DNA from: Alphaproteobacteria bacterium | Lineage (GTDB): Bacteria; Pseudomonadota; Alphaproteobacteria; MPNO01; UBA830 | Direction: 5' to 3' | Length of the DNA stretch: 64,000 nucleotides | Assembly: GCA_965243135.1 (NCBI GenBank) | Contig: OZ251539.1 | Coordinates: 4,736,001-4,800,000 of the forward strand | Shown: in pieces, positions 41,826 to 46,986 of the stretch | Layout: the number at the start of each line of letters is the position of its first letter | Numbering within the stretch: position 1 is the first letter of the stretch | The notes under the pieces: model-generated | Seen by the model: the letters and a program-made list of their open reading frames with translations, nothing else | Database searches by the model: none | Told to the model about the DNA's origin: nothing | Position numbers and translations under genes: made by a program

Positions 41826-43238
41826 GTGAAACCGCACATTGAGAAGGCTGTTAGCGGGATGTCCATGCTACAAAGCATACTCGGCTCCGGGCGAAACGGA
41901 AGAAATCTTGGACCAAGCGGGTCATCTGTTTTCCCAAATATTAATGTTAACGGTATCGCCACCCAATTACGTGTCGATCAGAGGGGAGCACAGCGGGGCG
42001 TGAAGAACCAGCCCTCATCCCAAGATACCAGCTTTGATAAGGTCGAACATGAGATAGTCAATCAGGTCAAATCCATCAGAGATCAGGGGCTTAAAAATTG
42101 TGATGACCATGCCCGAGTGTATGATAAACGTATCACAGATGGCGTGGGAATGGAAATACAAATACGAAAGGTATGCGACACTACGCTAACTGATTTTCAA
42201 GCAGTGGTTGCAAAACATCAAGACGATCTCGATAAGGCGCACGAAGCGGAGCGACAAGCGGATGTCGCGCTTCAACAATTCCGTGATTATAATCGGATAA
42301 ATGATCCACCTTACGATGAAAATGGATTCCCTAAATGGTTTGCTATCTCTCTCGTTATCATAGCGGCAGAATCCGTATTGAATGGCGTTTTCTTCGCTAA
42401 AGCTCATGAGATGGGTCTGGCTGGGGGTATCGGAAACGCTTTAGCGATCTCGGTTGTCAACGTCGGGTTGGCAAGCCTTGCAGGCTTGGTGACCCGGAAC
42501 TTCAATCATGTTGAACCGTGGCGGAAAGTGATCGGTACGCTTTCGTTTTTGGGGGCAGCGGGTCTGGCGCTGCTGTTCAACTTCGTCGTTGCGCATTTCC
42601 GCGACGCCATGACGGCTGCGGCTTGGGACCAAGCCGCAGGGCGTGCGGTGGAGCGTGCAATCGCCGTTCATTTTCCCGAAAGTATTGACGCTTGGCTTCT
42701 TGCGTTACTGGGTTTGCTGGCGGCGGCTCTTGCCGGCTGGAAGACCTATGGTGCTGACCATCCTTATCCGGGTTATGGACGGATATCCAGAAAGAGGAAG
42801 GAAGCCTACGAAACCTACTACGATAAGCGGGAGACTGCGATCACCATCGTAACAGAAAAGAGAGATGAATTCAACAACAAGCTCTCCGCCGCAAACGCAA
42901 CAATTAACTCTGCCGCGCGGGCAAGAAGCGAGTACAAGTTGCTGCATAAGGAGCGAAGTTCATTTCTACAACAGTGCGATCAGGCAGTGAACGGATTGCT
43001 GACCCGTTATCGGAGCGCAAACCAATCGCAGCGCAGCCAGCGTCCACCGGAACATTTCAAAGAAGAGTATTACTTTCCGAAAATTCCGCCTCTGGACGAC
43101 TTGTCGTCGGCAATGCATTTGCCGGGTACCGGGCTTGAGGCAGTAGTCGGCGATTCGCTCCAAAAAATCCACTCAGCATGTGAGGATGCCATCAATGCCT
43201 TTCAAAAAGTTGACAAACGGGACAACCCGATGCCATGA
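41826..43238 (+). CDS. Four-TM membrane protein flanked by coiled coils (operon gene 1)
   Basis: Four hydrophobic segments in the middle, DHPYPGYG after the last TM, helical N- and C-terminal regions, lower GC. Start could be 41859 or 41865. Confidence 0.8.
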   Translation: MKPHIEKAVSGMSMLQSILGSGRNGRNLGPSGSSVFPNINVNGIATQLRVDQRGAQRGVKNQPSSQDTSFDKVEHEIVNQVKSIRDQGLKNCDDHARVYDKRITDGVGMEIQIRKVCDTTLTDFQAVVAKHQDDLDKAHEAERQADVALQQFRDYNRINDPPYDENGFPKWFAISLVIIAAESVLNGVFFAKAHEMGLAGGIGNALAISVVNVGLASLAGLVTRNFNHVEPWRKVIGTLSFLGAAGLALLFNFVVAHFRDAMTAAAWDQAAGRAVERAIAVHFPESIDAWLLALLGLLAAALAGWKTYGADHPYPGYGRISRKRKEAYETYYDKRETAITIVTEKRDEFNNKLSAANATINSAARARSEYKLLHKERSSFLQQCDQAVNGLLTRYRSANQSQRSQRPPEHFKEEYYFPKIPPLDDLSSAMHLPGTGLEAVVGDSLQKIHSACEDAINAFQKVDKRDNPMP

Positions 43239-44032
43239 GACGGGTTGGAAGGCGGCGTGAAAAGCGGCAGGCCGGTTGGTGGGCGCTTATCGTCGCCACG
43301 CTCGTCGGACTTGCCATAGTTGTCGTGCTCATTCGGGAGTTCCAGCCTCCCTCTATTGACAAGACGACCCTGTGCCCGAAAGAAACAGGACCTGTAGCGG
43401 GCGTCGTGATCCTGCTTGATCTCACTGACCCGCTCAGCCCGACCCAGCATGCCCGACTGCGCGGGATTCTCGAAGCGGCCCTTGCCGAGGCGGAGGCAAA
43501 TACGCTCTTCGCGGTGGGTGCGGTCAGGACCGATCCCACACGGCGTGGCGCGGAATTCAAGCTCTGCAAGCCGTTAGAAGGGAAAGAGGCGAACGAACTT
43601 TACCAGAATTCGCGTCTTGTCCAAGATCGTTACCGGAAAGAATTCAAACGTCCGCTGGACTCCGTGCTTGAGGAAATGCTGGCCGCCGAGGCCGCGAACC
43701 GCTCGCCGATCATGGAATCGTTGCAGGCTTTACTCGCGTCCACGCCCGGATTCCTCGATGCTGAATATCCTCGACGCGTCCTGATCGTTTCGGATCTGCT
43801 GCAACACAGCGCCGCGTTCAGTTTCTATCGTGGCGGAAGCTGGAGAACCTTCATACGGTCCTCGGAATCCCGGAGACAGGCAAGAAACATGACCGGAATT
43901 GACGTAGAGATTTATCGGATGCCGCGTTCGAATACGAAGATTGATATCGCTGATGTAGAAGACTTCTGGGTTAACTATTTTGATCGGGCGAATGTACAGA
44001 GCTTGTCCACTCGACCGCTTGGCGACCTGTGA
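43235..44032 (+). CDS. Membrane-anchored VWA-like domain protein (operon gene 2)
   Basis: Basic N-terminus plus TM; MIDAS-like ILLDLTD..S, SPIMESL, VLIVSDLLQ; ATGA overlap with gene 1. Confidence 0.7.
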   Translation: MRRVGRRREKRQAGWWALIVATLVGLAIVVVLIREFQPPSIDKTTLCPKETGPVAGVVILLDLTDPLSPTQHARLRGILEAALAEAEANTLFAVGAVRTDPTRRGAEFKLCKPLEGKEANELYQNSRLVQDRYRKEFKRPLDSVLEEMLAAEAANRSPIMESLQALLASTPGFLDAEYPRRVLIVSDLLQHSAAFSFYRGGSWRTFIRSSESRRQARNMTGIDVEIYRMPRSNTKIDIADVEDFWVNYFDRANVQSLSTRPLGDL

Positions 44033-45531: not shown

Positions 45532-45546
45532 CGGCTGAGTTACGCA

Positions 45547-46986
45547 ATGGCGCTGCCCTCTGGTACAGATTTTCCTAAGGAAACCCATTATCGACGCGGT
45601 GTGGTCATGGGATTGACTGTCGCGGAAGCGTTCATGCTCGTAGCCTTTATATTGATGATGACGCTTCTCTTCTGGCGCTTGGCGATCGAGGAAGAAACCA
45701 AAGGTCATGTTCGAGCAAAACAAATTTCTCTAGAGACTATCAATATACTGATCGAAAATCCAAAAATTGAACAACTTGTTCCGGCCATCGAGCATTTGCG
45801 GGAGGACACTCGACGCAAACTCGGCGATCTTGTTCGGCGTCCATATGCGAACGAGGCGGTAGCGGTTGCGCAAGGTTTATCGGAAGCCGACCTTGGTGCG
45901 TTGCGGCGTGGGGCGAAGCTTGTCGATCCGCAACGTTTTAAGGAGCTCAAGGACGCCGAGGAACTGGCGAAACGCTTCAAGGCGACGAGCCTCATGATCG
46001 AAAAGATCGAGGATCTTAAGGATGCACTGCGGCAGCGAAGCGTCGGGGAAATTGAGGACGCACTTGCAGTTATGAAGGGATTGTCTGAGGCTGACCGTCG
46101 TGAGTTGCGGCGCGGGGCAAAGCTTGTCGATCCACAACGTTTTAAGGAGCTCAAGGACGCCGAGGAACTGGCGAAACGCTTCAAGGCGACGAACCTTATG
46201 ATCGAAAAGATCGAGGGTCTTAAGGATGCGCTGCGGCAACGAAGCGTCGGGGAAATTGAGGATGCACTTGCAATTACTAGGGGATTGTCTGAGGCCGACC
46301 TTCGTGAGTTACGGCGTGGGGCGAAGCTTGTCAATCCGCAACGTCTTAAGGAGCTAGAGGACGCCGAGGAACTAGCGCAACGTTTGCACAGCCGACTTAC
46401 GGAGCTTCTTAACGAAGAAGATCGGGCGCGCAAGGATTTGGTCGACGAGCTCAAGCGGGATCTTGGGACCGAGATCCGGGTTGTCGGCGGGCGCATCGAC
46501 GAGTTCGACGGCACGATCACGTTTCCGGAAAACGCGCTTTTTTCATTGGGACGAGACGATATTCTGCCTCGTTTTTCCGATATATTGGACAAGATGTGCC
46601 CGATCTGGTTGAAAAAATTGAGGAAGTTTACGGATCGACGGGAAATCGAGGAAATTCTGATAGAAGGACATTCGTCTTCGGAATGGAATAACGCCCCGAC
46701 GAAACGGGACGCTTGGGTTCTGAATCTCGACCTCTCGCAACGCCGTGCACAGGCGGTTCTAGTGCATTGCCTGAAGCTGGTCGAAGGAACGCTGTCCGGG
46801 GAATGGTCTCGTGCAAAGTTGGCTGCAATCGGTTATTCTTCTTCGCGGCCGGTGTTGGAAAACGGCCGGGAAAGCCTGCGAAAGTCGCGGCGCGCTGTGT
46901 TCGGGATGCGGTTGAGCCGTGAGCAACTTCGGCAAGAAATCCTGAAAGAACTCCAGAAGGAAAACCGCGGTGACGTTGCCCGATAG
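45547..46986 (+). CDS. MotB/ZorB-like protein: TM, repeat linker, OmpA-like peptidoglycan-binding domain (operon gene 4)
   Basis: [63 protein letters not shown]. Confidence 0.85.
45874..46377 (+). repeat. Near-identical 204-bp (68-aa) tandem repeat, about 2.5 copies
   Basis: [29 protein letters not shown] units start at 45874, 46078 and 46282. Confidence 0.95.

Follow-up and report, generated by a model that had tools for sequence, protein, structure and literature searches.

A putative Zorya-related membrane cassette with VWA-fold and four-transmembrane partners in Alphaproteobacteria

What might a Zorya-like pair of membrane proteins do when its genes are accompanied by a four-transmembrane protein and a membrane-anchored VWA-fold protein instead of a helicase or an HNH nuclease? 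The question is raised by four genes, here g1 to g4, in a stretch of 64,000 nucleotides (the window) from an alphaproteobacterium (contig OZ251539.1, positions 4,736,001 to 4,800,000, assembly GCA_965243135.1). On the comparisons set out below, they are best read as one copy of a widespread, unnamed and horizontally mobile membrane cassette, a putative undescribed Zorya-related variant of the stator-type systems; a role for this variant as an envelope module acting against invading DNA is the likeliest one, at about even odds. The four genes, as given by the list of open reading frames (ORFs), are:

41826-43238, + strand: g1, four-transmembrane protein, 470 residues, GTG start
43235-44032, + strand: g2, membrane-anchored VWA-fold protein, 265 residues
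44029-45531, + strand: g3, candidate MotA/ExbB/ZorA-type subunit, 500 residues
45547-46986, + strand: g4, MotB/ZorB-type protein, 479 residues

Consistent with the preliminary description, which had been made from the sequence alone, these are co-oriented and tightly packed, with 4-nt overlaps between g1 and g2 (ATGA) and between g2 and g3 (GTGA) and a 15-nt spacing between g3 and g4, and their G+C fraction is low (0.47-0.58 over 41.5-47.0 kb versus 0.63-0.74 on either side). An ATG at 41859, preceded by GAGAAGG, is a possible alternative start of g1.

A conserved cassette and its candidate stator-type pair

The four genes recur together. Our hidden Markov model (HMM) scan covered 21 loci, namely the window, 12 genome loci and 8 of the 24 plasmid matches, with different species chosen and a near-duplicate locus (L009, of the same genus as L018) left out. 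The three genes g1, g2 and g3 follow one another in 14 of these loci, and the gene after g3 codes for the g4-type helix in 13 of the 14 cassettes (the exception is L001), which upholds the expectation of the preliminary description that the order would be conserved. Whereas g3 was found only adjoining g1-g2, the latter two adjoin each other in all 21 loci, most of which were obtained with g2 as the probe, and in 7/21 they occur without g3; hence, the function of g1-g2 would not depend on the motor. Eight plasmid loci carrying annotation by others show the same four genes, as checked with HMMs, and the depositors' labels run, in order, hypothetical, hypothetical, hypothetical (once 'methyl-accepting chemotaxis protein') and 'OmpA family protein'. 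The aberrant label belongs to the g3 homologue on a Rhizobium leguminosarum TA1 plasmid (L064, 7771-9120) and is likely a misannotation that hides the family in databases, with the helical tail of the protein as its probable cause. L054 and L055 are short loci. The former looks like a degraded or rearranged cassette: at 540-3626 (G427:C2), g1 and a g2 with an in-frame TAG are directly followed by a g4-type-helix gene, with no g3 between.

The firmest link to a known system comes from g4, for which the single transmembrane helix and OmpA-like peptidoglycan-binding domain of the preliminary description both held up. It combines an N-terminal helix of the trans-pore type, a repeat-containing helical linker and a C-terminal, ZorB-like peptidoglycan-binding domain:

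45607-45675, + strand: conserved N-terminal helix of g4 (residues 21-43), with E27 at the ZorB/MotB Asp position
45886-46382, + strand: 204-nt in-frame tandem repeat in the g4 linker, 2.4 copies, 90% matches
46396-46950, + strand: ZorB-type OmpA-like peptidoglycan-binding domain of g4 (residues 284-468), from PADLOC, Pfam and family columns

Among the PADLOC models, ZorB2 matches residues 284-468 with E 1.2e-31 (108 bits) and ZorB1 follows with E 1.3e-26. When the ZorB2 model was run over 301 genomes, it recovered six true ZorB2 genes (E 1e-91 to 1e-104), right behind which came the window g4 (4e-31) and its homologue from L014 (1.4e-27), ahead of MotB/OmpA-like proteins among the matches listed. 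The NCBIfam ZorB2 equivalog gives g4 81.5 bits, with a cut-off of 400; models of MotD, MotS, TssL and YiaD give 18-26 bits, those of MotD, TssL and YiaD lying at 22-26. Pfam OmpA (PF00691) scores 24.0 bits on the window g4 against a gathering cut-off of 27.2, 28.7 bits on the L014 homologue, and E <= 1e-3 in 73 of the 83 members of the g4 family (79 proteins, or 83 with the locus copies). Two cysteines of this domain, C351 and C408, are almost invariant in the family alignment. In the linker, the tandem repeat triplicates a 68-residue helical unit.

The N-terminal helix is almost invariant, and G22, T24 and E27 occur in every one of the 81 proteins of the family whose sequences span these columns. 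By our reading of the alignment with the ZorB2 N-termini from five canonical ZorA-ZorB-ZorE loci, E27 stands opposite the Asp of the ZorB2 'SDLM' motif. That Asp (Asp26 in E. coli ZorB) is described as universally conserved and essential, with D26N abolishing defence, by Hu et al. (PMC11946911); its place is taken by Glu in every one of those 81 proteins. On these alignments, g4 is a MotB/ZorB-type protein with an invariant acidic residue, Glu, in its transmembrane helix.

The assignment of g3 is less direct. Its structural model has four transmembrane helices (2-26, 32-58, 72-98 and 108-138), with a block predicted local distance difference test (pLDDT) score of 79-92 over most of the transmembrane part, and further helices covering residues 142-480. 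This tail of about 360 residues, for which matches to helical-repeat families provide additional support, confirms the very long helical tail that had been noticed earlier; its length differs among relatives, whose proteins range from 326 to 802 residues. The family invariants concentrate on helix 3 (G76, D77, N78, Y80, Y81, L82, G83, T87, L88) and helix 4 (F118, A121, L122, T125, G128, R132), in the motifs GDNxYYLG..TL and F.IAL.ST..G, respectively, so that the strings LGFVFTL and ALVSTIFG, on which the preliminary description had relied, are real and lie in the most conserved part of the family. Within the tail, a 25-nt direct repeat with copies 387 nt apart (44945-45356) and the repeated protein units of the form 'DPA...F(R/H)' suggest that the tail grew by duplication.

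Several profile comparisons converge on these two helices. Pfam MotA_ExbB (PF01618) covers them in the window protein with 10.8 bits against a gathering threshold of 22.9, and it is the one family matched by five of six g3 N-terminal domains (E <= 10; best 0.004). With hhalign, g3 against five ZorA2 proteins gave 38% (E 3.4e-4) from a shallow alignment and 22% (E 1e-3) from one of 52 sequences; the 51-52 aligned columns comprise exactly the two conserved helices and place T87 and S124/T125 opposite the invariant T60 and S94 of ZorA2. Against the three TolQ/ExbB/MotA-type proteins of the same genome, the values were 9.8% (shallow) or 65% (E 6e-5, 108 columns), and g1, serving as an unrelated four-transmembrane control, reached 0.5-8% against the same MotA-type profiles. 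PADLOC ZorA matches to g3 (best E 5e-7) were rejected as signs of ZorA membership, because most of their extent falls in the tail, a region that JetC, LmuB and Cas12c models match too. Foldseek with the whole g3 model returned nothing at E <= 1e-3, with ZorA, TolQ and ExbB chains among the weak rows only; in a VIA-align comparison with 48,161 chains, generic helical hairpins dominated, and the g3 profile searched against PDB gave tail or coiled-coil matches only. Because the matches are below threshold, though consistent, we regard g3 as probably, but not provenly, a distant MotA/ExbB-type subunit in which the tail is the ZorA-resembling feature; the earlier MotA/TolQ/ExbB-type assignment stands to this extent. 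The family is large, with 2,772 representatives at 50% identity (E <= 1e-3) found by HMMER with an N-terminal profile, 870 of them at E <= 1e-30; for family members with a source name shown, that name is 'hypothetical protein' only. It carries no name, Pfam family or PADLOC model.

Partner proteins and nucleases

The preliminary description of the first two genes as a four-transmembrane protein and an anchored VWA-like protein is borne out by the predictions for both. For g2, these comprise an Arg/Lys-rich segment, then an N-terminal transmembrane anchor (about residues 8-35) and then a domain whose VWA fold is apparent from the AlphaFold2 model (pLDDT 90.8, predicted template-modelling score 0.84). 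Foldseek against PDB put only VWA or integrin I domains in its top rows (best E 2.6e-5, with 98 matches at E <= 1e-3), including TFIIH p34, Rpn10, vWF A3 and BatA/BatB, with modest template-modelling scores of 0.3-0.6. At the sequence level, Pfam gave no match on g2, its profile had none in PDB, and its near neighbours in the ESM Atlas are all unnamed, with VWA_2 a 0.85 lead. We are nevertheless confident, on the strength of the model, in predicting a membrane-anchored protein of the VWA fold. The canonical metal-ion-dependent adhesion site (MIDAS) of VWA domains comprises DxSxS plus a Thr and an Asp. In the g2 family, strand 1 is followed instead by D62-x-T64-D65-P, D187 comes after strand 4 and S157 is a possible equivalent of the Thr. 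The family invariants are C47, C111, D62, D65 and D187. Since the Arg/Lys-rich N-terminus precedes the transmembrane helix, and C47 and C111 are invariant, the sequence suggests a periplasmic head with a C47-C111 disulfide bond.

The g1 protein has four predicted transmembrane helices at about residues 170-308, as read from the alignment, between helical N- and C-terminal domains, both of which the positive-inside rule would place in the cytoplasm. In a 10-sequence alignment, the invariant polar residues E182, N186, S209, N212, N252, H257 and R259 fall in the transmembrane helices or at their ends, and a P315-G316 motif follows the fourth helix. Such residues would speak for ion conduction or catalysis by g1 in the membrane rather than for passive anchoring. 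No family was found for it in Pfam, PADLOC or NCBIfam; its profile gave weak coiled-coil rows only and no relative in PDB, and its near neighbours in the ESM Atlas are all unnamed. That it could be a cryptic MotA-like protein was rejected on its hhalign values. A complex prediction for g1 with g2 scored 0.17 against a mark of 0.32 and is evidence neither way.

In the g4 family, 49 of the 83 members reach at least 90 residues past the peptidoglycan-binding domain. A staphylococcal-nuclease (SNase) domain is found in 37 of the 83 and GmrSD_C in one. Eight of the 14 cassettes have a nuclease, either as a fusion with g4 or in a gene no more than two genes away:

L014: nuclease fused to g4
L018, L020, L058, L061, L062, L063, L064: nuclease encoded within two genes

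In L014 (6691-8496, - strand), the g4 homologue, 31% identical to that of the window, ends in a GmrSD_C/DUF1524-type nuclease (Pfam E 2.3e-11), which is predicted to be a second, unrelated nuclease fold at the SNase position. Most of the seven stand-alone nucleases start with a signal-peptide-like hydrophobic stretch, each has 4-10 cysteines, and those on plasmids are annotated as thermonuclease family proteins. One relative with a nuclease is a set of five genes on pRL11 of Rhizobium johnstonii 3841 (RL_RS31080-31100). Given these N-termini on the one hand and the fusion to the periplasmic end of g4 on the other, the nuclease is predicted to lie outside the cytoplasm in both arrangements. The precomputed Pfam column shows SNase for none of the six closest relatives of the window g4 (54-67% identical), and both Paracoccus plasmid loci that were examined are without a nuclease; the nuclease-free cassettes thus appear to form a lineage. 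The suggestion of an all-membrane variant, with which the locus was first described, thus suits this copy and not the family as a whole, given the exported nucleases in 8/14 cassettes and 37/83 g4 relatives.

Spread and genomic setting

The distribution is patchy and points to mobility. One sample of 401 genomes of the phylum has g2 in 9 and g3 in 5, all five among the nine, and the gene tables of four of the five g3 genomes place g2 and g3 next to each other. Relatives of g2 were found on 24 plasmids, 11 of them conjugative, 4 mobilizable and 9 non-mobilizable. As a rough proxy for a shared genome, at least 29 of 78 g4 matches have a longest contig equal in length to that of a g2 or g3 match, among the matches listed.

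When 58 flanking ORFs were scanned as one pool, both defence-type matches and housekeeping genes came up, together with HNH, REase_II and DruA matches that are not tied to any locus. Defence genes lie within 8 kb of two of the five related genome loci whose flanks were scanned. About 3 kb from the cassette of L018, a gene of more than 1,470 codons (9580-13998) matches PADLOC PDC-S37 and Hhe, and an SNase also stands beside this locus; about 4 kb from that of L020 is a TerY-P-type kinase (16241-19547), and the pooled scan showed TerY and PP2C matches. Among the plasmid neighbours are toxin-antitoxin genes (HipA and Phd/YefM), transposases of IS256 and IS1182, a recombinase and proteins of the CHAT and DUF4041 kinds, as well as efflux pumps, ABC transporters and the type VI secretion system protein VgrG. 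The association of the cassette with defence genes is suggestive, not established, and the picture for the defence-island association that the preliminary description had named as a check is a mixed one, with metabolic or transport genes in many flanks.

As for the window copy, the preliminary description had correctly recognized an insertion in the cob cluster beside a higBA module. The upstream flank is CobN (61% to the annotated cobN) and the downstream flank a cobyric acid synthase (cobQ, 63%); from the end of the former to the start of the latter there are about 8.2 kb in the window versus about 0.65-0.85 kb in relatives (e.g., G408, G412, G404, G406, G402 and G403). A DNA-level match to the four genes was found in none of 30 relatives, and the g2 profile found nothing in the four genomes of the same genus and distant matches only in 3 of the 30. 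Because of these two negative results, the four-gene island appears to be a recent acquisition. Besides the cassette, the island carries only:

40992-41556, + strand: higB-type toxin gene and intact higA (41284-41556), in the same low-G+C insertion, directly upstream of the cassette

The higB/RelE-type gene (40992-41287) is split over two frames, with the change near 41155-41162: the N-terminal part lies in the frame of the ORF 40992-41264, while a second frame, from 41162, holds the C-terminal 40 residues with their typical ending ...EDYH. Either the toxin gene is frameshifted and its antitoxin partner intact, or the split reflects a sequencing error. At the edges of the insertion, a piece of about 100 nt directly upstream of g1 (41665-41775) has four other genome copies at 86-88% identity, and a piece after cobN (39149-39249) has four at 77-78%; these short recurring stretches may be small repeat elements. 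Separating cobN from the island is a zinc-type alcohol dehydrogenase gene (39474-40733, - strand) of native-like G+C, the homologue of which in relatives (70-78% DNA identity) is far from the cob genes; therefore, the cobN-cobQ gap contains more than one inserted or rearranged piece. Scans for promoters and terminators stayed at or under shuffle expectation, and there were no Rfam matches in 38800-47400.

Immunity or another envelope task

How, then, does the cassette relate to known systems? Zorya types I-III join a ZorA5B2 motor to ZorC/D, ZorE or ZorF/G (PMC11946911, PMC11890865). Like these, the cassette offers a membrane pair in which a candidate MotA-like subunit with a long helical cytoplasmic tail accompanies a MotB-like subunit. 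The peptidoglycan-binding domain of the latter is specifically ZorB-like, and its helix has an acidic residue at the equivalent position, while Thr and Ser/Thr residues on the g3 helices align, at hhalign probabilities of 22-38%, with the pore-lining helices of ZorA; a link to nucleases and a patchy, mobile distribution are further shared features. Unlike Zorya, it is without ZorC, D, E, F or G and has two extra conserved membrane proteins, the four-transmembrane g1 and the VWA protein g2, which are also found alone. Further, all 81 of its B subunits have Glu for Asp, its g3 has four closely spaced transmembrane helices with no large membrane-proximal cytoplasmic domain, and its nuclease, where present, is exported (SNase) or on the periplasmic end of the B subunit, and not cytosolic. 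By these features, the cassette would fall outside Zorya proper, because of the Asp-to-Glu change, the curated cut-offs that g3 and g4 do not reach and the absent effector genes.

The preliminary description had been right about the lack of a helicase or HNH gene: none of the ZorC/D/E/F/G types is represented, and PADLOC models give no match to g1 or g2. Its view of g3 and g4 as ZorA/ZorB-like survives insofar as they are nearer to Zorya than to other named systems, though they are far under the NCBI ZorA/ZorB cut-offs and have Glu for Asp. The premise that pairing a MotA-like with a MotB-like protein defines Zorya has to be given up, as such a pairing defines flagellar stators too.

With MotAB, PomAB, ExbBD and TolQR the cassette would share the division into an A subunit that forms the channel and a B subunit that crosses the membrane once and has a buried acidic residue, and with MotB an OmpA-like peptidoglycan anchor. 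Unlike these flagellar, Ton and Tol stators, it has no flagellar, TonB or TolA context; the hhalign value of g3 reaches only 65%, and g4 scores 18-22 bits with MotD/MotS as against 108 with ZorB2. Among VWA proteins, BatA and BatB are anchored in the membrane by a transmembrane helix. Their structures (PDB 4jdu, 3ibs) share with g2 the fold alone, at 12-13% identity, and the Bat/MoxR operon context is absent here. Two further classes of membrane-tethered VWA proteins, predicted beside 5:2 motors (PMC12204202, Mol Biol Evol 2025), also have an inner-membrane-tethered periplasmic VWA protein encoded beside 5:2-type motor genes. The transmembrane helix of g2 lacks the SHLS/His motif of the TonB-like vWA class and the pore Asp of the TPH-vWA class (the segment has no His, Asp or Glu), the cassette has a separate MotB-like g4 where the TPH-vWA class has no tolR/exbD/motB gene, and, unlike the vWA transducers in general, g2 has no long linker and its partner g3 bears a ZorA-like tail. 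We found no paper describing the four-gene set, in keeping with its first description as undescribed, though the subtype tables in the supplement of PMC11890865 might list related variants; a literature search for MotB linked to a periplasmic SNase nuclease gave nothing relevant.

In the mechanism that we propose, g3 and g4 would form a Zorya-like, ion-driven stator-type complex, in which the two conserved helices of g3, with T87 and S124/T125, would surround the Glu27 helix of g4 and the long tail of g3 would project into the cytoplasm. The VWA head of g2 would stand in the periplasm, and g1 would cross the membrane, with its two helical end domains on the cytoplasmic side and possibly in contact with the g3 tail. 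Most likely, the cassette would sense a perturbation of the envelope or invading DNA, be it phage or other mobile DNA; the output of nuclease-bearing cassettes would be DNA cutting outside the cytoplasm, and that of nuclease-free copies like the window's probably a membrane effect via g1. A stronger form, which we put forward only tentatively, is that these systems constitute a new class of envelope machine, ion-powered and devoted to immunity or surveillance, with a Glu stator, a periplasmic VWA sensor, a polar four-transmembrane effector and a nuclease arm. It is equally tentative that in such a machine the exported nuclease on the periplasmic arm of the stator, found in about half of the members, attacks foreign DNA before it reaches the cytoplasm.

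A series of points weighs against a Zorya-related immune role. No defence phenotype is known for any family member, relatives of g2 were not found in phage records, no PADLOC model matches g1 or g2, many flanks hold metabolic or transport genes, and g1-g2 occur without g3-g4 in 7/21 loci. The window cassette contains no nuclease, and its genome gave no SNase match. To our knowledge, an exported nuclease is unusual for defence systems, and it fits other roles. With regard to the pair itself, g3 reaches no curated MotA/ExbB/ZorA threshold (NCBIfam ZorA_1 gives 17.5 bits with a cut-off of 190), its PADLOC ZorA matches, mainly in the tail, are shared with the coiled-coil models JetC and LmuB, structure searches cannot tell it from generic helical bundles, and it has about 13 residues between helices 2 and 3 with no large cytoplasmic domain between the transmembrane helices. 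The Glu of g4 departs from the Asp that Hu et al. call universally conserved.

The alternative that survives best, which we hold to be rather unlikely, accepts a real stator-type envelope machine but gives it a task other than immunity, such as the processing or uptake of extracellular DNA (in nutrient scavenging or matrix remodelling) or another envelope function. In a similarly unlikely elaboration, the actual work would fall to the exported thermonuclease, with the VWA head binding a ligand or acting as an adhesin. The nucleases suit this well, since they are either exported SNases whose N-termini resemble signal peptides or extensions of the periplasmic end of g4. So do the many cassettes that sit amid transport and metabolic genes on large replicons of rhizobia or Paracoccus, neighbours that include cadherin-domain, SH3-domain and GGDEF proteins, and the missing PADLOC matches of g1 and g2. 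Moreover, PMC12204202 proposes a non-defence role in force transduction for other tethered VWA proteins beside 5:2-type motors. However, such a task sits poorly with a distribution as patchy as 9 of 401 genomes and none of four in the genus, with a low-G+C insertion beside a toxin-antitoxin module, and with the recurrence of insertion sequences, recombinases and toxin-antitoxin genes as neighbours. The defence genes within 8 kb of two of the five scanned genome loci, the specifically ZorB-like periplasmic domain of g4 and the persistence of nuclease-free lineages also speak against this alternative.

An improbable alternative denies the motor: g3 would be no MotA/ExbB homologue, g4 an OmpA-type anchor and the whole a static envelope scaffold or signalling complex. 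It draws on the sub-threshold standing of every g3 match to MotA-type profiles, the uninformative fold searches, the missing large cytoplasmic domain between the helices of g3 and the Glu in place of the canonical Asp in g4. Yet, a buried acidic residue that is invariant in a single-pass helix (81/81) is hard to explain without ion binding, and it stands at the very position of the ZorB2 Asp. Also against a static scaffold are the invariant Thr and Ser/Thr on the last two transmembrane helices of g3 that align with T60 and S94 of ZorA2, the fact that MotA_ExbB is the sole family matched by 5/6 g3 N-terminal domains, and the adjacency of g3 and g4 in 13/14 cassettes. Finally, that the window copy is a decaying remnant, with its nuclease lost and its genes drifting (as the absence of a nuclease from cassette and genome, the broken frame of the neighbouring higB and the recent in-frame triplication in g4 might suggest), is very improbable in view of four intact ORFs with coupled start and stop codons, the presence in the window proteins of all the family-invariant residues that were checked, and the lack of SNase in the six closest g4 relatives and of a nuclease in the two Paracoccus plasmid loci, which make nuclease-free cassettes look like a lineage and not a product of chance.

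Returning to the reading of a Zorya-related envelope module, its interest lies in the rarity of such designs: few defence systems besides Zorya use a rotary ion motor, and for Zorya only three effector sets have been described. The cassette may show a ZorB-type anchor and a tailed MotA-like partner reused with different partners: a polar-cored membrane protein, a VWA head that is probably periplasmic and, frequently, an exported nuclease. The invariant Glu of g4 bears on how strictly 5:2 motors need Asp. Where a stator carries a nuclease on its periplasmic arm, invading DNA could conceivably be attacked outside the cytoplasm. If the role should prove not to be defence, the cassette would still represent an uncharacterised envelope machine that is common on alphaproteobacterial plasmids.

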